A DNA stretch of 32,000 bases. Source: Candidatus Heimdallarchaeota archaeon (GTDB lineage Archaea; Asgardarchaeota; Heimdallarchaeia; Heimdallarchaeales; Heimdallarchaeaceae). The position numbers were made by a program, and so were the translations under genes. This document shows positions 3,979 through 17,238 of the stretch, one piece after another (position 1 is the stretch's first letter; each line of letters begins with the position of its first letter). The notes beneath the pieces were generated by a model, which saw only the letters and a program-made list of their open reading frames with translations, made no database searches and was not told the DNA's origin. The DNA is taken from the NCBI GenBank assembly GCA_030668875.1, contig DAOVER010000004.1, positions 60,001-92,000 on the forward strand. The letters are read 5' to 3'.

Positions 3979-6495
3979 CTATTTTAGCTCATCCACTTTA
4001 GCCCTTAATTTCTCAACAAGATCAGTCTTTTCCCAAGTGAAATCGGGCAATTCTCTTCCAAAATGTCCATAGCAAGATGTTTTTTGATAAATTGGTCTCT
4101 TTAATTTAAGGTATTCAATAATATTTCCTGGTCTGAAGTCGAATACACAAAGAATAGCTTCCTTTAGAATTTCTATTGAAACTTTTTCAGTACCAAAACA
4201 TTCAATATTAACTGCTAAGGGCTTGGGTTCACCAATTGCATAAGAAACTTGAACTTCACACTTATCAGCTAATTCTGCAGCAACAACATTCTTTGCGACA
4301 TATCTTGCTGCATAAGAAGCTGATCGATCTACTTTTGAAGGATCTTTACCAGAATTATGACATATGAACCCGTTTGCCGTGAAAGAGTGCACGCCTGGTA
4401 CTTCAAAATCATAAACATGATTTTCATTTTCGGTTATAGACTTTAGTTCTGAATAGTAATGATTCAGAATATAGTATGATTTTAGATACTCAAAATCTGG
4501 ATCGTCATCAAATCGATTTTTATAACAATCTAAGAATTCTACTAATTTTGTATATGTTAATTCCTTAGTCCCTTTATAACTTTGACTTCGAAGTAAACGA
4601 CCTATTTTTGCTTTATCCTCTTGATGTTCTTTTGGTGATAGCTTATCCCATAATCGTTTCAACCTACTTTTTTGATTGGGAATCCTCCAAAGGTTTCTCT
4701 TATTAGAAAAATCAACTGAATTCAAGACTCTAGATTTTCTTGTTAATCCAAAATTGATTTCTTTTTTAAAGGCTGTTATGCTATTTGTACCTTTAATTCG
4801 AAGATGATAGCGAATTCTCTTAGATTCCACTATTCTACCATCTATTTCTGATTTAAGTCCTCGCGCACCAACTTCTTGTATAGAACTAATAATTCCAAAA
4901 TTTAGCAGTAATTGTTGTGTTTCCTCGATTAACTGCTTTGATGTTGAAGTAAGAGTTATTTCAATTGAATTTAGGTTTCTTCCAGTTTTTCTTATGGTTC
5001 CATCGGTGTCAAATAAACCTCTAATAAATGAAGCAATTACAGATTTTTGTGCTTTAAAAATACTGTTTGGAACACTTTTTTCCCAAGACCTTGAATAATC
5101 TAATCCAAGTGTGTAAAGAAACTCCCTAAGTTCTACCCCACAATAATGTGCCCAATGACCGAATATTTTCCCTTTATCGCCAAATAGCTGTTCATAGAGA
5201 TTCTGAACAGAATTTTTCATCTCATCTTCCCATACACATATCTGTATACCATTTCTAGATGTACACAAACCATCACCAATAAGCAATCCTAAGAGATATC
5301 CATATTCTTCTGTAAGTGTATTGGGAAATTTAAATTCATTAAATCGTCGAGTTCCTTCTTTATGCTGAAATTCAAAGTTAATTGTAGAATTCTTACCAAA
5401 TAATCGATTTTTCCTTTGAATAGCAATCCAATCATCAGTTTGTAAAGTGTCTAATCTCCTCCAAACATAATTGCCGTTTTTATCAATTATTCTTATATTT
5501 TGATTAAAAGAACCTTCCAGCTTGTAACCTTCTTTTGTTTCTACAATTAATGTTTTCATTTTTCCATTGTCTATCCATCTCTTAATGGGTGACGGTGATA
5601 TGTCTGTTTTGATTAAGGTTCCTTCTTCAATACCATCTAGTTCAGATATGGTTGCTATTCCATTTTCATAATTAATCAAGCTGCTACCTGCAACGCAGAA
5701 TGCTCCTCCACCGTGAGAATCTACTCCTCCGTAAGTGTCAACGATTATTTTTCTTCCTGTTAATCCTGAATCGCCATGTGGTCCCCCTGTAACAAATCTC
5801 CCTGTTCGATTGATGAAGATTTTAGTTTTTTCATCTACTAAGTAAGTTGGGATAACTGCTTCAATAACTTCTTTTTTCAATCCAGATTCAATTTCTTCAT
5901 TTGTTGCTTCTTCTGCATGTTGGGCAGCAATAACAATAGCTTCTATTCGAATTGGCTTATCATTCTCATATTCAACTGCCACTAGTGATTTGCCATCTGG
6001 GCGTAGAAAGGGCAAAGTACCATTTTTTCGAACTTCAGTGAGTTTCATTGTTATTTTATGGGCTAGTACTATAGGTAATGGCATAAATTCTGGAGTTTCT
6101 TTTGTTGCATATCCATACATAATACCTTGATCTCCTGCCCCTTGTTCCTCAACCATGTCTTTTTTTACACCTTGAGCTATGTCTTCTGATTGAGAGTGCA
6201 CTGTGTTTATTATAGCACATCCTCTATAATCAAAACCAATACTTGAATCATTATACCCGATTTCTTTAATAATATCACGAATGATTTTTTCATATTCAAC
6301 AGTACACACTTTTGATGTGGTAATTTCACCACCTACTAAAACAAGACCTGTTGTAACAAAACATTCACATGCTACATGTGCATCAGGATCATCTTTTAAA
6401 ATAGCATCGAGGATCGCATCAGAAATTTGATCACAAATTTTGTCAGGATGCCCCTCTGTTACAGATTCTGAAGAAATAATTTTACGTAATACCAT
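3979..6495 (-). CDS. metK: S-adenosylmethionine synthetase (bacterial/eukaryotic MAT type), intein-containing precursor; about 390 aa after splicing
   Basis: [61 protein letters not shown]|[12 protein letters not shown]-extein is residues 1-266; C-extein is residues 715-838. Confidence 0.97.
4354..5697 (-). mobile_element. Intein (448 aa) with LAGLIDADG homing endonuclease, in frame within metK
   Basis: Begins with Cys (TGC, 5697-5695; CVAGSSLI) and ends [21 protein letters not shown], followed by Ser+1. LAGLIDADG motifs [10 protein letters not shown] and [10 protein letters not shown] are present. Removing it restores the MAT motif GGGAFSGKD. Confidence 0.95.
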
Positions 6496-9538: not shown

Positions 9539-11647
9539 CTATTCTAGCAATAATCTAAGAGTTACGAGTTGACCATTAATTTCATTCTTAAGTTTTTCAA
9601 TGGTCTGTTGTCTTTCACGGAATAGTTTAACATAAGATTCTTTGGTCATGCTTTTCTTAGTTCTATATTCTTGTTGAAGCGCTCTTAGATTTCTTCTTTC
9701 TTCGTAGAGTTTTCTTTCAGCAATCTCGATTTTCTGAACAGATTCTTTGTATCTTCCACCAAGAGCTGATAAACTTATCTTTGTTGTCTTCAAGGACTCT
9801 TCTTCGGCTCTTAGGCGTTTTTCTAGCTTAGCACGTAATTCTTTACCTTCTTTTGCTTTCATTTTCTTACTTGCTATTTTCGCCTTTACCTGTCTGAGAC
9901 GTTCTCTAATAGATAAAACTTCTTCATATTGTTTTACAAATTCTTCAATCTCATCAACAGGAATGAATTCTTCTTCTATCTCGGCTTCAGAAAGTCCTTT
10001 TATTCGTTTTGCTGACCAACGAAGTCCAAGGTATATAGCAAAGATAAGACCCACTGCCATAAATTGCCAGAAGAATGTGATAAACATGTTAAAACCAGTG
10101 TAACTATATTCTATAATTAACGATGAGTTATCGCTTCCCGAAAAATTTGTGAACTGTAATCCTACCACTCTCTTTGTTCCTAGTGCAGTAAAATCGAATA
10201 ATCTCCCATAATCAATTATCATGTCCTGATAAGGATCTGTATTCCAATAATCAAGTTCCTTATATACTGCTCCCTTAGGAAGAATTATTTCAAGATTTAG
10301 ATTATCTATGGACCAATTAACAATTGAACTTGGAGAAAGTGTGAGTTTGTAGTTTGAACTTCCTTGTTCTTTCTCTAGAACACTCTCCATTGGAACAGTG
10401 TATACAATTGTAAATTTCATTTCTTCTCCATGGAATAGAGGTTCTCTTGGAAAGATAAGCAAAGCTTGATGTCCTTCAAATGTACTATCCCTTAGGTTGT
10501 AAGCACCTCTTTCAAAATATCCCTCTTCATTTATCTGATACTCTTGATTTAAGGATCCAGTGTCATCATACAAATCAATAACAGTAACGTTTTTTGGAAA
10601 CACTATCGGAAATGAGTTTAGAGCATACAGTTTTGGAGAGAGATGATCATAATCTTCAGGTCTTTCACTACCTAAGAAAACGATATTCTGTGTTTCAGTT
10701 ATTTGTACTAGTCCATAAGGATCAATTTCTACAACTCTATGAACTTCTGTTGCTTTAAACAGCAATGTGCTTGACTGTTGTTCTGCATCAGCAGTGCTTA
10801 CTGAAGATATATGTACATTAAGGAGAAGATCGTCAGAATATGATTGACTATAATTAAAGGGCAATCTTGTGATGTTTGACCATTTAAGAGTACCACTTAC
10901 TGCATCATTGATAACAGTTATCCCTTCAGTATCATTTCCAGGAGATATTCGGAATTCTGCTACATCTAAAAATAGGTCACCACCTTGTTTTTCAACTTTG
11001 ACTGACCCATTAACAATTGGTATGTTGTTAATAAGAGGATACAACAATTCTTCATAATGAGTAATCTGTTCTCCTACATAAAGCTCAAATGTATAAGGCA
11101 TAGAAAATTCAATGTACGAATTGATGAAATAAACGTCATTTTGGTGAATTTCTGTTTTATTCACGTTGAAGGGAATGACGAAAGTTGTATAGTTCAATAA
11201 TTTGTTAAATGTATATATCCGAGTAGCATTACCTTCTATTAGTGACTTATAAGTGGCATTAGCTACACGAAAACTGGCGTAAGTTATTTTATCAGCATGA
11301 ATATTAGGCAATGTATAATTAAAATATGTTAAATTTAGATTACCAATCACTTTTAATTCAATACTATCCGAGATTGAAAGTACACCAAAATTCTCTATGT
11401 TAATTGATCTATTTACTATAGATGTTACATTTAATCCATAGTCGATGACACCGATATCATTGTATCCTTCATCACTGTACACCATGCCACTTGGGGTAAG
11501 GAGGGGTGTACTATTCACAATATTCGATAGATCTGTTTGAGGGTTCATTTCTGCGGAACCCTGTGTTGAATTCAGCATAGCTGAAAATGATATGCTAACG
11601 ATGACAAGTAATGTAAAAGTTAACATTATACCTTTGTTTTTGTGCAT
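9539..11647 (-). CDS. ost1: Ribophorin I / Ost1-like oligosaccharyltransferase subunit
   Basis: Signal peptide; two repeats starting VNRSINIENFG and VHRVVEIDPYG; FPKNVTVIDLYDDTGSL, FPREPLFHG...YTVP and IDNLNLEIILPKGA align by eye with the eukaryotic RPN1 segments LP..A..VYYRDEIGNI, PRFPLFGGW...YNLP and IDSLTVKIILPEGA. Single TM at about residues 521-542 and a ~160-aa coiled-coil tail. Confidence 0.85.
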   Translation of the reverse strand: MHKNKGIMLTFTLLVIVSISFSAMLNSTQGSAEMNPQTDLSNIVNSTPLLTPSGMVYSDEGYNDIGVIDYGLNVTSIVNRSINIENFGVLSISDSIELKVIGNLNLTYFNYTLPNIHADKITYASFRVANATYKSLIEGNATRIYTFNKLLNYTTFVIPFNVNKTEIHQNDVYFINSYIEFSMPYTFELYVGEQITHYEELLYPLINNIPIVNGSVKVEKQGGDLFLDVAEFRISPGNDTEGITVINDAVSGTLKWSNITRLPFNYSQSYSDDLLLNVHISSVSTADAEQQSSTLLFKATEVHRVVEIDPYGLVQITETQNIVFLGSERPEDYDHLSPKLYALNSFPIVFPKNVTVIDLYDDTGSLNQEYQINEEGYFERGAYNLRDSTFEGHQALLIFPREPLFHGEEMKFTIVYTVPMESVLEKEQGSSNYKLTLSPSSIVNWSIDNLNLEIILPKGAVYKELDYWNTDPYQDMIIDYGRLFDFTALGTKRVVGLQFTNFSGSDNSSLIIEYSYTGFNMFITFFWQFMAVGLIFAIYLGLRWSAKRIKGLSEAEIEEEFIPVDEIEEFVKQYEEVLSIRERLRQVKAKIASKKMKAKEGKELRAKLEKRLRAEEESLKTTKISLSALGGRYKESVQKIEIAERKLYEERRNLRALQQEYRTKKSMTKESYVKLFRERQQTIEKLKNEINGQLVTLRLLLE

Positions 11648-12654: not shown

Positions 12655-12691
12655 TTAATCGAACTTGACAAAGATTAGGAGTAAATCTAAA

Positions 12692-15349
12692 ATGAAGCGG
12701 TTTGATGATAGAAAACTGAAACCAAAACTTACACCGATGATGCAGCAATGGCAACAGATAAAGAATCAATACCCAGATTATTTGTTATTCTTTAGAGCTG
12801 GTGACTTCTACGAATGTTTCAATGAAGATGCAAAAGTCGCTTCTGAGATTTTGAATATCACTCTAACTGCTCGTAATATTGGAGAAAAGAAATTTCCTCT
12901 TGCTGGAGTGCCTTATCATGCAGTTGATGCATATATAGCTAAAATGGTTCAATCAGGTAATAAAGTAGCTATTGTTGAGCAGCTAGAAGATCCTAAACTT
13001 GCTAAAAAAATAGTCAAGAGAGGAGTAGTGCAGCTCGTAACTAGAGGCACAATCACTTTACCCGAATCTCTTGGGAAAAGTAGAAACAATTATCTCGTCT
13101 CAATTAAAAAAGAACAAGGAATTTATGGATTAGCTGCACTTGATTTATCTACTGGTGAATTTTTAGTTACTGATTTCGATGAAGAGAATGCTCTTAATTT
13201 ACTAGAAGTTGAGCTAACAAGATTGAAACCTTCTGAAATCATTATTGAAAGTGAATTGTGGAAATCTCTTAATATTTACTCGGACGCACAACTATGTACA
13301 ATTACTTACAGAGATGATTTCTTCTTTGATACTGAGCAAGGAAAAGAAAACCTTTGTCAACATTTCAATGTATTAAGCTTGGAAGGTTTCGGAATTGGAG
13401 ATTATAATCCTTCTACTGGTTCAGCTGGAGCCATCTTGAGTTATATAAAGGAAACACAGATGAGAGAAAATTTCCTTAACATCACTAAAATCAGTCCCAT
13501 TTTGAGTCATGACTACATGGTCTTGGATTCAAGTACTATTAGAAATCTTGAACTTATTGAAAACTTACGTGACAGGACCGAGTATGGAACTCTTAGGCAA
13601 GTATTAGATAATACGAGAACCTTTGCTGGTTCTCGATTATTAACTTCTTGGATTCTTCGACCTAGTCTAAACCATTCTACCATTCAAACACGAATCGATT
13701 CTACTGAAGAGCTGTTAAATGATAATATTTTGCGTGATGAAATTCGAGATGTTTTGGGTAGAATGAATGATCTTGAAAGACTTATCAGCCGTGTATGCTT
13801 GGGCAGAAGCAAACCTCGTGATTTATTGGCACTTAGACATTCCTTGGAATTAATACCCTCACTAAAAGACCTCCTCTCAAAAACTAAAACCTCTTTACTT
13901 CAAGAAATCAGAGAAAACCTTGATCCCGTTCAAAAGGCAGTTGATACAATTACTAAAGGAATTGAAGATGAGGTTCCCGCAAGTATCAAAGATGGAAATG
14001 TGGTAAGAGAAGGATATAATGATGAGTTAGATGAATTAAGGAAGATACAAAAAAGTGGGAAATCTTTTCTAGCTTCATTAGAAGCTAGAGAGAAAGTTCA
14101 AACTGGTATAAAGACCCTCAAAGTAAGATTTAACAAAGTTTTTGGTTATTATATTGAGATACCAAAATCCGTTTCAGAAAACGTTCCTCCAGAATACGAA
14201 CGGAAACAAACATTGGTTAATGCTGAAAGGTTCATAACTCCAGAATTAAAGGAGTATGAGGAAAAAATACTGAATGCAGAAGAAAAGATACTAGTATTAG
14301 AAGAACGACTATTTAACGAAATACTTGAAGAAATCAGTAAACATGCAACAGAAATTCAATTAGACGCATATAATTGTGCAATATTAGATGTGATAACTAC
14401 CTTTGCACAAAATGCTGTTTACTATAATTACATCAAACCAGAAATAATTGATAAGGATATATTGAAAATCAAAGGAGGACGTCATCCAGTAGTTGAGCAA
14501 TTGCTTGAACGAACAACATTTATCCCAAACGATACTGTTCTCAAGAAAGATTCCGAGAGAATATTGATAATTACGGGGCCCAACATGGGCGGAAAAAGCA
14601 CTTTATTAAGACAAGTGGCTTTAATTGTCTTAATGGCTCAAATTGGAAGTTTTGTTCCTGCTACTTCTGCAAAAATTGGACTAACTGACAGAATATTTAC
14701 AAGAATTGGTGCCCATGATATTATTGTTGAAAATAGATCTACTTTCATGGTGGAAATGTATGAATGTGCAAACATTCTAAATAATGCTACAGAAAGAAGC
14801 ATAGTTATCCTAGACGAGGTTGGTAGAGGAACTTCTACATATGATGGTGTAGCCATTGCTTGGTCAATAACCGAATATCTTCACAATAATATTGGTGAAG
14901 TTGGACCAAGAACAATGTTTGCAACACATTATCATGAACTCATAGAATTGGAAGAATTGTGGCCCAGAGTAAAAAATTATCATGCTTCAGTTAAGAACGT
15001 TAATGGTGAAATTCATTTCTTGTATAAAGTTAAAGAGGGTGGTATAAGTGAAAGTTTCGGGATTCATGTTGCTTCTTTAGCTGGATTACCACAGAAAGTT
15101 ATAAAAGATGCAGATGCGATGCTTTCGATTTTGCACAGACAAGAGAAAAAAGAAAATGAAAAACTTGGTCACAAAAAAACTGTAAAAAGAAAAACCAAAG
15201 AAGAAGATCAAACACTAATTGAAGAGGGCACACAACTGTTAGACGAAATCTCAGGTATCAATACTGACAGAATCACTCCAATAGAAGCTTTTAATTTATT
15301 GAACCAACTAGTAGAGAAAAGTAAGAAATATCTTGAAAAAGATAAGTAA
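12692..15349 (+). CDS. mutS: DNA mismatch repair ATPase MutS (MutS1 type)
   Basis: TPMMQQW, GDFYE mismatch-binding Phe-X-Glu, GVPYH, ITGPNMGGKST, STFMVEM, DEVGRGTST, FATHYHEL, SFGIHVA. Start placed at ATG 12692 (AGGAG upstream) rather than TTG 12665. Confidence 0.97.
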   Translation: MKRFDDRKLKPKLTPMMQQWQQIKNQYPDYLLFFRAGDFYECFNEDAKVASEILNITLTARNIGEKKFPLAGVPYHAVDAYIAKMVQSGNKVAIVEQLEDPKLAKKIVKRGVVQLVTRGTITLPESLGKSRNNYLVSIKKEQGIYGLAALDLSTGEFLVTDFDEENALNLLEVELTRLKPSEIIIESELWKSLNIYSDAQLCTITYRDDFFFDTEQGKENLCQHFNVLSLEGFGIGDYNPSTGSAGAILSYIKETQMRENFLNITKISPILSHDYMVLDSSTIRNLELIENLRDRTEYGTLRQVLDNTRTFAGSRLLTSWILRPSLNHSTIQTRIDSTEELLNDNILRDEIRDVLGRMNDLERLISRVCLGRSKPRDLLALRHSLELIPSLKDLLSKTKTSLLQEIRENLDPVQKAVDTITKGIEDEVPASIKDGNVVREGYNDELDELRKIQKSGKSFLASLEAREKVQTGIKTLKVRFNKVFGYYIEIPKSVSENVPPEYERKQTLVNAERFITPELKEYEEKILNAEEKILVLEERLFNEILEEISKHATEIQLDAYNCAILDVITTFAQNAVYYNYIKPEIIDKDILKIKGGRHPVVEQLLERTTFIPNDTVLKKDSERILIITGPNMGGKSTLLRQVALIVLMAQIGSFVPATSAKIGLTDRIFTRIGAHDIIVENRSTFMVEMYECANILNNATERSIVILDEVGRGTSTYDGVAIAWSITEYLHNNIGEVGPRTMFATHYHELIELEELWPRVKNYHASVKNVNGEIHFLYKVKEGGISESFGIHVASLAGLPQKVIKDADAMLSILHRQEKKENEKLGHKKTVKRKTKEEDQTLIEEGTQLLDEISGINTDRITPIEAFNLLNQLVEKSKKYLEKDK

Positions 15350-15405
15350 TAACACGGACAGAAGTAGTTTTCTTACTAAGAAAAAAGGAATAGAATTTTG
15401 GTTGT

Positions 15406-17238
15406 TTGAAGAAAATGATTATTGAACTTGATACTCTCACTATAAATAAAATTGCCGCTGGAGAGGTTATAGAGCGACCTGCCTCTGTTGTTAAAGAACT
15501 TGTAGAAAATTCCATTGATGCTGGAAGTACTCAAATTAAAGTTGTCCTTCAGGAAGGGGGGAAGAAACTCATTGAAGTTACAGATAATGGTTCAGGAATG
15601 AATCATGATGACGCTTTGTTATCAATCAAAAGTCATACAACAAGTAAAATTGCTACAGCTGAAGATTTGTTTTCAATTGCAAGTTTAGGCTTTAGAGGTG
15701 AAGCTTTAGCTAGTGTAGTAAGTGTTGCCCAAGTTGAAATTTTTACCAAAAGGGAAACTGACGAACTAGGAACACATATTCAAGTTGAAGGAGGTAAAAT
15801 CCTTCTTGATAAAAATATCTCCGTAGCAAGTGGGACTAAAATTACCGTAAGGAATTTATTTTATAATGTGCCTGTAAGAAGAAGGTTTCTAAAGTCTGAA
15901 ACAACTGAAATGAATCATATTACAGAATACCTCACAAAGCTAGCTTTGGCATTCCCAGAAATATCCTTTTCCCTAGATCATAACAATCGTAGTGTGATAA
16001 CTGCTCCTAAAGGAGACCTTATCTCTCAAATAAATTCCATATTTGGAAAAAACATTGCAAAAGCATGTATTCCGGTTTCTAAGACAGAAGATGAATACAC
16101 AGTTACCGGTTTTATAACCAAACCAGAATTTTCTAGAAAATCTAGGGACTATCTTTATATCTTCGTTTTAAACCGACCTATCGTAAATAAAGTAATCACC
16201 GATGCGATTCTTCGTGGATATAGTACAGCACTGCCACATAATAGAACCCCCATAGTTTTTCTAAATATCACAGTTCCAAAGAATGAAGTTGATGTTAATG
16301 TTCATCCCACGAAAAAAGAAGTTCGTTTTAGTAAAGAAGCTAAATTGTTTAGCCTAGTTGAACTTGCAGTAAAAGAATCTCTAGAAAAAAGCGGATTAGA
16401 GATATTTGAAAGGGTATCAGAACCAAAACACAAGCCCACAATGCTAGATCAACATTCAGCGCCAAAGGTAGTTTCTAAGACACAACCCACCCAAATACGA
16501 TCATCACCTTCTCCTCCTTTAGTTCAAGATAAAGTGGGGTATAAGGTAGTGAAAACAAGAGATAAATCAATTGATCATTTCTTACCTTCTACTCACAGAG
16601 GAACTTCATATCAAAAACAAGAGCATTCGCCAAAACCACTGATTAAAATCCTTGGAATAATCAAGGATACTTACATTATAGCTGAAACGAATGAAGGTCT
16701 TCTATTATGTGATCAACATGCTGCTCATGAGAAAATTAATTATTCTAAATATGTTGATCAAATTGAAAGAAAAAAAATTAGTGTTCAAAGTTTACTCGCA
16801 CCAGTTTCAGTTAGTATAAAACCTTCAGAGTTAGAAGTTATTAATGATCTTAAAACTAAATTGAAAGAATATGGTTTTGAATTAGAAATTTTCGGTAAAA
16901 ATGAGATTCTAATACGTTCAATTCCTTCGATAATGGGCGTTGCTATTTCATATGACTTAGCAAAAGATTTGATTGACATATTTAAAGAAAATATAGACCA
17001 GATTAACAAACAAACAACGCTTGAAGATTTAGGTTTTATAAAAGACATAGTTTCTATCTTTGCATGTCGAAGATCCATTAAAGCCGGTGACAAAATCTCA
17101 GTTAGTGAAGCTGAATCATTGATTGAAAATCTCTTAAAATTAGAAGAACCTTATACGTGTCCTCATGGGCGTCCAACAATGGTTATCTTGAATCAGAAGT
17201 ATATCGAAGAAATATTCCAAAGAGATTACAAATCATAA
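15406..17238 (+). CDS. mutL: DNA mismatch repair endonuclease MutL
   Basis: NKIAAGEVIERPASVVKELVENSIDAG, DNGSG, GFRGEAL; C-terminal DQHAAHE, ACR and CPHGRP endonuclease motifs. Confidence 0.97.
   Translation: MKKMIIELDTLTINKIAAGEVIERPASVVKELVENSIDAGSTQIKVVLQEGGKKLIEVTDNGSGMNHDDALLSIKSHTTSKIATAEDLFSIASLGFRGEALASVVSVAQVEIFTKRETDELGTHIQVEGGKILLDKNISVASGTKITVRNLFYNVPVRRRFLKSETTEMNHITEYLTKLALAFPEISFSLDHNNRSVITAPKGDLISQINSIFGKNIAKACIPVSKTEDEYTVTGFITKPEFSRKSRDYLYIFVLNRPIVNKVITDAILRGYSTALPHNRTPIVFLNITVPKNEVDVNVHPTKKEVRFSKEAKLFSLVELAVKESLEKSGLEIFERVSEPKHKPTMLDQHSAPKVVSKTQPTQIRSSPSPPLVQDKVGYKVVKTRDKSIDHFLPSTHRGTSYQKQEHSPKPLIKILGIIKDTYIIAETNEGLLLCDQHAAHEKINYSKYVDQIERKKISVQSLLAPVSVSIKPSELEVINDLKTKLKEYGFELEIFGKNEILIRSIPSIMGVAISYDLAKDLIDIFKENIDQINKQTTLEDLGFIKDIVSIFACRRSIKAGDKISVSEAESLIENLLKLEEPYTCPHGRPTMVILNQKYIEEIFQRDYKS

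Follow-up and report, generated by a model that had tools for sequence, protein, structure and literature searches.

In the TliVMA and PhoVMA inteins (7qss, 7qst), PI-PfuI of ribonucleotide reductase (RNR; 1dq3), PI-TkoII (2cw7), and yeast PI-SceI (VMA1), a Hint splicing domain that starts with Cys1 and ends with a His-Asn pair is split by a LAGLIDADG endonuclease with two motifs, and the whole element interrupts an essential enzyme at a motif that binds nucleotides. We describe here an intein of the same plan in metK, the methionine adenosyltransferase (MAT) gene for S-adenosylmethionine (SAM) synthesis of a Candidatus Heimdallarchaeota archaeon. The gene lies in a stretch of 32,000 nt (GenBank assembly GCA_030668875.1, contig DAOVER010000004.1, positions 60,001–92,000 of the forward strand), hereafter the window. 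The inteins listed above are its best structural and profile matches, yet they share only 11–18% sequence identity with it. Unlike theirs, its host is MetK and not an ATPase, a polymerase, or an RNR, and its block B contains Gln and not His. Very probably, it is a functional selfish class 1 intein in which a LAGLIDADG homing endonuclease with two motifs is nested, and which is lodged in the triphosphate-binding loop encoded by the sole MAT gene of its host.

Metabolic and RNA-processing hosts of inteins do exist: UDP-glucose dehydrogenase, RtcB, Cbf5/TruB, A-ATPase, SufB, and the fungal GLT1 and ThrRS (for SufB and the fungal hosts, PMC8891592; PMC5056185). The inteins of these hosts occupy other insertion sites and belong to lineages unrelated to the MetK intein. 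With respect to block B, two further systems are of interest. The orthologues of the Tko CDC21-1 intein form a small natural group without the block B His, with a bulky Leu at position −1 and compensatory splicing (PMC6333167). They differ from the MetK intein, which combines a Gln in block B with a −1 Phe, in their host (MCM/CDC21) as well as in the replacing and the compensating residues. In the engineered Ssp DnaB M86 intein G-1F/H73A (6fre, 6frg), a Phe at −1 was found by experiment to replace the block B His (PMC6333167). The MetK site provides the same −1 Phe, and both 6fre and 6frg are among the matches of its Hint domain. However, M86 is an artificial trans-splicing mini-intein, whereas the MetK intein is natural and full-length.

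Anatomy of the metK precursor

The reading frame of metK is uninterrupted over 838 codons (table 1). Pfam recognizes in this open reading frame (ORF) three S-AdoMet synthetase domains together with Intein_splicing and LAGLIDADG_3 (PF14528, E 2e-20). Among the NCBIfam models, TIGR01034 metK scores 555 bits (E 7e-167, for a cut-off of 309), TIGR01443 intein_Cterm is also matched, and the insertion matches the intein parts of many intein-containing models. The protein has every character of a bacterial/eukaryal-type MAT, including the signatures GAGDQG and GGGAFSGKD, and the best solved relatives of its extein are human MAT2A and Escherichia coli MetK. The insertion corresponds to ORF residues 267–714; it begins with CVAGSS and ends with FICHN, followed by SGKD. 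Its excision in silico leaves a MetK of 390 amino acids (aa) in which GGGAFSGKD is whole. The alignment of the N-extein to E. coli MetK runs to residue 262, the last before the junction, which we take to be F262|S263 of the E. coli enzyme with K265 as the third residue past it. The intein is placed inside the triphosphate-binding loop of MetK (GGGAF|SGKD). The original prediction, made from the letters of the window, had described a 448-aa in-frame insertion at 4354–5697 that extends from Cys1 to His-Asn, is followed by Ser+1, and splits GGGAF|SGKD three residues before the conserved MAT Lys. Coordinates and residues were borne out exactly, the Lys being K265 in E. coli numbering.

We modeled the intein with AlphaFold2 from 60 family members (pLDDT 93.6, pTM 0.92). 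The best Foldseek matches of the model are the TliVMA intein 7qss (E 9e-23), PI-PfuI 1dq3, PI-TkoII 2cw7, and PI-SceI. Its Hint part matches the mini-inteins NpuDnaB, Ssp DnaB, and Mxe GyrA. Its middle part shows the endonuclease fold, with matches to PI-PfuI and PI-SceI and to the free LAGLIDADG enzymes I-DmoI and I-Tsp061I.

Catalytic residues were compared in an alignment of 120 members of the family described in the next section. Both LAGLIDADG motifs, LLGLLIGDG and IRGLFDTDG, are present and, as originally reported, have intact acidic residues: D142 and D230 are conserved in 120/120 and D232 in 116/120 sequences. Mean pairwise identity within the family is 54.5% for the homing endonuclease (HE) region versus 60.8% for the extein. 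The ratio of nonsynonymous to synonymous divergence (dN/dS) of the HE region, about 0.12, is a rough value only, as dS is saturated (intein dS > 2). This conservation, the low dN/dS, and the invariant acidic residues argue for an active endonuclease kept under purifying selection. Cys1, Asp430, N442, G443, His447, and Asn448 are invariant in the 120 sequences, and His437 is found in 108 of them. The +1 residue is Ser (SGKD) in 120/120 of the matches listed, and a Cys precedes the terminal His-Asn (C-H-N) in 102/120 members. Cys1, the block F and G residues, Ser+1, the Hint fold, and the existence of precise intein-less homologues are those of a class 1 intein. Class 3 does not apply: Cys1 is present, block F reads V-Y-D430 and not Cys, and block G (F-I-C-H-N) lacks the Thr signature. 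The only departure from class 1 is block B, which reads S63-F-N-Q66 where T-x-x-H is canonical.

The source genome (G000; 3.23 Mb in 99 contigs, 92% complete, 4.4% contamination) contains a single PF02773 locus, and no archaeal-type MAT (PF01941) was found in it. Between the G000 extein and the nearest intein-less allele, dN is 0.019 and dS 0.198 (ratio 0.10). As no second MAT gene was found in the 92%-complete genome and the extein of this one is under purifying selection, SAM supply should depend on splicing, in line with the original prediction. From the same two observations we infer that the intein excises itself autocatalytically and ligates its exteins. Translation would yield an 838-aa precursor, in which an N-S acyl shift by Cys1 would turn its bond to Phe(−1) into a thioester; the bulky −1 Phe would presumably strain this junction and so help to activate it, perhaps together with an invariant Arg69. 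Ser+1 would then attack the thioester, and Asn448 would cyclize with the assistance of His447. The expected products are the 390-aa MetK with GGGAFSGKD restored and the free 448-aa endonuclease. The latter would cleave intein-less metK at the conserved codons that form the insertion site, and the intein would be copied in during repair (homing).

Table 1. Features of the metK locus (coordinates of the window) and other intein loci of the source genome
Feature	Position	Strand	Basis
metK precursor ORF, 838 aa	3979..6495	(-)	TIGR01034 E 7e-167; PF00438, PF02772, PF02773
N-extein, residues 1-266, C-terminal end ...HGGGAF (-1 = Phe)	5698..6495	(-)	human MAT2A / E. coli MetK alignment
448-aa intein: Hint splicing domain + nested LAGLIDADG homing endonuclease	4354..5697	(-)	profiles, AlphaFold2 model, Foldseek
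C-extein, residues 715-838 + stop, N-terminal SGKDPSKVD	3979..4353	(-)	PF02773 profile positions 31-138
+1 Ser codon of C-extein	4351-4353	(-)	
Block A nucleophile Cys1 (TGC)	5695..5697	(-)	120/120 in family alignment
Block B S63-F-N-Q66 instead of T-x-x-H	5500..5511	(-)	profile alignment to Mxe GyrA intein T72-A-N-H75
Gln66, at catalytic-His position	5500-5502	(-)	profile alignment to Mxe GyrA intein
Homing-endonuclease region, ~intein residues 106-412, approximate bounds	4462..5382	(-)	PF14528; Foldseek PI-PfuI, PI-SceI, I-DmoI
LAGLIDADG motif 1, LLGLLIGDG, catalytic Asp142	5269..5295	(-)	G137, G141, D142 invariant in 120
LAGLIDADG motif 2, IRGLFDTDG, Asp230/Asp232	4999..5025	(-)	D230 120/120, D232 116/120
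Blocks F + G, H427-V-Y-D430...H437...N442-G-F-I-C-H447-N448	4354..4419	(-)	family alignment; TIGR01443
Other intein loci of G000, L119-L127	contigs C13, C79, C15, C95, C9, C40, C91, C68, C19		

The MetK intein family and its block B

The full-length protein has at least 120 matches of about 835 aa with 50–77% identity, and all those listed have the intein at HN|SGKD. Scanning one genome per species in GTDB, we found the same intein in 49 species (46–67% identity), surrounded by MetK motifs in 48 of them. The 49th locus (L073) has no usable ORF; the C-terminal junction reads HN|SGKD wherever it is readable. The carriers belong mostly to the DPANN archaea: Micrarchaeota, Nanoarchaeota, Woese-/Pacearchaeota, Aenigmatarchaeota, Iainarchaeum, and Diapherotrites. 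The others include a few metagenome-assembled genomes (MAGs) labeled Nitrososphaerales, Patescibacteria/Parcubacteria/Saccharibacteria, and Omnitrophota. Clustering at 50% identity collapses the family to a handful of representatives. As the nearest inteins of other hosts are at most ~36% identical, these inteins form a distinct, site-specific lineage.

Two further intein sites exist in MetK. An intein of ~405 aa (C...HN|S) follows GAGDQG in P0003, P0004, P0010, P0024, P0058, P0059, and L028, and one of ~453 aa (C...HN|T) lies after GDxGL and before TGRK in L040. Each is found alongside the GGGAF|SGKD intein, giving precursors of ~1240–1300 aa. MetK often harbors inteins in uncultured archaea and in some bacteria. 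The original prediction had regarded MAT as an uncommon host. This is still true of the searchable literature; it does not hold for sequence databases, where the 120/120 matches listed and 48/49 GTDB species representatives carry an intein at this very position. It had also allowed that the novelty would be lower if many characterized inteins occupied the site: many do at the sequence level, and none of them has been characterized. No description of a MetK intein was found in the open-access full-text literature, which is not a proof of novelty, and the main text of a 2016 intein survey does not mention one. The family at GGGAF|SGKD is apparently undescribed.

The inteins of six carriers with bacterial labels (L040, L042, L044, L050, L054, and L060) form one clade (support 97), and their exteins are dispersed among DPANN MetKs. 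The labels of these MAGs are Patescibacteria, Parcubacteria, Saccharibacteria, Omnitrophota, or simply "bacterium". These carriers could result from transfer between domains, either of the intein or of the entire gene, or from mis-binning.

The block B replacement had no place in the original prediction. In a profile alignment, Gln66 is aligned with His75 of the Mxe GyrA intein. The corresponding column contains 98 Gln and 22 His in the 120 aligned sequences. Among 137 distinct family sequences there are 108 Gln and 29 His, and the tree requires at least two changes between these residues; in mixing the two forms the family differs from the Tko CDC21-1 group. Gln at block B is a family trait rather than a private defect. 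As 108 of the 137 distinct inteins have this residue within metK, normally an essential gene, the Gln-type block B probably works in vivo. Arg69, three residues past Gln66, is invariant across the family.

Natural class 1 inteins without the block B His are known, so its absence is a variant feature and not a ground for exclusion from class 1 (PMC6333167). According to the same study, bulky −1 side chains including Phe can stand in for this His in the N-S acyl shift, and the few natural inteins that lack it have a bulky −1 residue (PMC6333167). We found nothing relevant to block B compensation in a second article (PMC6801210). By analogy, the invariant host Phe at −1 may supply the strain otherwise given by the His, possibly with the help of the invariant Arg69, which is only a candidate as a compensator. 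That the MetK inteins represent a large natural class 1 clade able to do without the block B His is a tentative idea, and we would not yet bet on it. If it held, they would parallel in nature the engineered G-1F/H73A DnaB intein and could serve to study catalysis of the first splicing step.

Distribution in Asgard archaea and the probable homing cycle

In the genus to which G000 belongs, the intein occurs in two of 23 species. The remaining 21 read an unbroken GGGAFSGKD where the gene was recovered, and thus provide the empty metK alleles that the original prediction had proposed to look for in related genomes. Throughout the phylum, the intein is present in three of 399 genomes: G000, G019, and G051, which belongs to a sister genus. 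In the extein tree, G000 falls in a clade of four members (support 100) with three empty alleles (88–97% aa identity), all with GGGAFSGKD intact. One of these, G021, is 95–97% identical at the aa level and 94.6% at the nt level. In the intein tree, the sequences from the three Asgard genomes group together (support 99), and this group nests with those of an uncultured archaeon and a Micrarchaeota MAG (100).

Metagenomes document both states of the site. As cold-seep contigs of an independent study (X5; ~94–96% nt identity) span both junctions, the occupied allele is real and not an assembly artefact. In a third study (X6), a contig of depth 17 joins position 4352 to 5697, skipping exactly 1344 nt, and low-depth contigs (~4) of the same run cover the intein. 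The source study (X3) also has a sample with empty-allele joints. Judged from contigs, which do not separate species populations, occupied and empty alleles of close relatives therefore share the same sediments. The patchy intein, its empty closest alleles, and the conserved endonuclease fit an active homing cycle. As was originally proposed, the element is probably still mobile.

Several observations weigh against a functional and recently mobile intein. Its block B is devoid of the His that many inteins need. The flanks of the G000 intein are closer to the empty alleles of G021 and G016 than to any occupied allele, with no clear co-conversion tract. The nearest intein sampled at the species level is only 67% identical, though variants with ~94–96% nt identity exist in metagenomes. 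Finally, the Asgard intein tree mirrors host taxonomy, so that an ancient acquisition followed by repeated precise loss fits as well as a recent invasion. The Asgard carriers may derive from one entry into the archaeal family followed by many precise losses or from continued homing within the family, both of which are phases of a homing cycle. Compared with the nearest empty allele, G000 has 8 synonymous differences in the 52 nt flanking the junction (4315–4368, 5683–5712) versus 5.4% for the whole gene, a statistically weak excess when the scanning is taken into account. It could reflect a short co-conversion tract or target-site drift. We also considered foreign composition as a clue to the origin of the element and rejected it, the GC content of the intein being uninformative in this respect.

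The alternative that survives best is a vertically inherited relic: the intein would have entered the ancestor of the archaeal family long ago, homing would have ceased, and the patchiness would result from repeated precise losses. The monophyly of the Asgard inteins, which branch as (G051,(G000,G019)) like their hosts, the distance between those of G000 and G019 (67% aa identity, dS saturated), and the lack of a clear co-conversion tract are in its favor. So is the GC content of the intein (32.0%, with 21% at third codon positions [GC3]), which is near that of the genome (33.8%; extein 35.7%, GC3 18%). We nevertheless regard it as unlikely, since the extein tree would require about five or more independent precise deletions, one of them within dS 0.2 of G000, since the acidic residues and the entire HE region are under purifying selection, and since the presence of occupied and empty alleles of close relatives in the same samples is the very condition for homing.

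Less likely still, by a clear step, is a domesticated conditional switch, in which an environmental cue (redox via Cys1/Cys446, temperature, metals, or substrate) would gate splicing and tune SAM, the intein being kept because it is useful. Such regulation has been proposed for other inteins (PMC4760082). Here, the unspliced precursor should be inactive, as the intein interrupts the loop that binds triphosphate in the only MAT; with its block B weakened by the change from His to Gln, the first step could depend more on conditions, and the Cys of C-H-N is widely conserved in the family (102/120). However, a regulator needed by the host would not be so patchy: the intein is absent from 21/23 congeneric species and 396/399 genomes of the phylum, and the three nearest alleles are empty. 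Moreover, the conserved endonuclease serves a selfish element and not a switch, and we identified no sensor feature. The conditional control raised in the original prediction therefore found no supporting evidence. A dead gene or an artefact, either an assembly chimera or a non-splicing intein that makes metK a pseudogene, might be suspected from the missing block B His and from a 99-contig MAG with 4.4% contamination, yet it is close to refuted by the independent contigs bridging both junctions, the 838 open codons, the extein dN/dS of 0.10, the failure to find another MAT gene, and the same architecture in more than 130 distinct sequences, mostly of the Gln type.

Genome context and implications

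The G000 genome is rich in inteins, with 24 Hint matches. About three are found in MCM, three to four in ribonucleotide reductase, and two in GyrA, and single inteins in PolII DP2, RNA polymerase A'', A-ATPase subunit A, RtcB, Cbf5/TruB, and UDP-glucose dehydrogenase. In two congeners (G019:C32:7280-8614, G015:C27:7067-8398), a 1329-aa ORF located a few kb from metK contains an intein 33–34% identical to the MetK intein; judged by its size, this ORF is probably MutS. The MutS of the window (12665–15349, plus strand, 894 aa) is intein-free. It belongs to a bacterial-type pair of MutS, with all five domains, and MutL that adjoins a ThiF-family gene (12665–17238, plus strand) in this archaeal genome. 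Another ORF of the window, of 702 aa (9539–11647, minus strand), matches the Ribophorin I domain (E 9e-15). This component of the oligosaccharyltransferase is eukaryote-like and typical of Asgard archaea; together with a close protein that NCBI names Heimdallarchaeaceae, it supports a Heimdall-type Asgard host. Scans of the window for tRNAs and with Rfam gave no matches.

The two MAT types are complementary within one archaeal order (genomes G000–G039). In families f1 and f3, MetK is present in 33 of 35 relatives, and the archaeal type occurs neither in any of these relatives nor in G000. In families f2 and f4, the archaeal type is present in 4/4 genomes and MetK in none. This split looks like a non-orthologous replacement.

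With MetK, a central enzyme of cofactor synthesis joins the hosts of inteins, and insertion in its ATP/triphosphate-binding loop fits the known bias of inteins toward nucleotide-binding motifs. The MetKs of uncultured microbes have at least three such insertion sites. Current knowledge of how inteins work or spread is left unchanged by these data. For annotation, the ~830-aa "methionine adenosyltransferases" of the MetK intein family should carry an intein-containing label. The sharing of one intein lineage by DPANN, a few Asgard archaea, and candidate-phyla bacteria of sediments and groundwater hints at gene flow. Of what remains novel, we find most interesting the replacement of the block B His by Gln next to an unchanging −1 Phe, which amounts to a natural experiment on the first splicing step. 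Should this step be weakened, SAM synthesis might respond to conditions in the small number of lineages bearing the intein.

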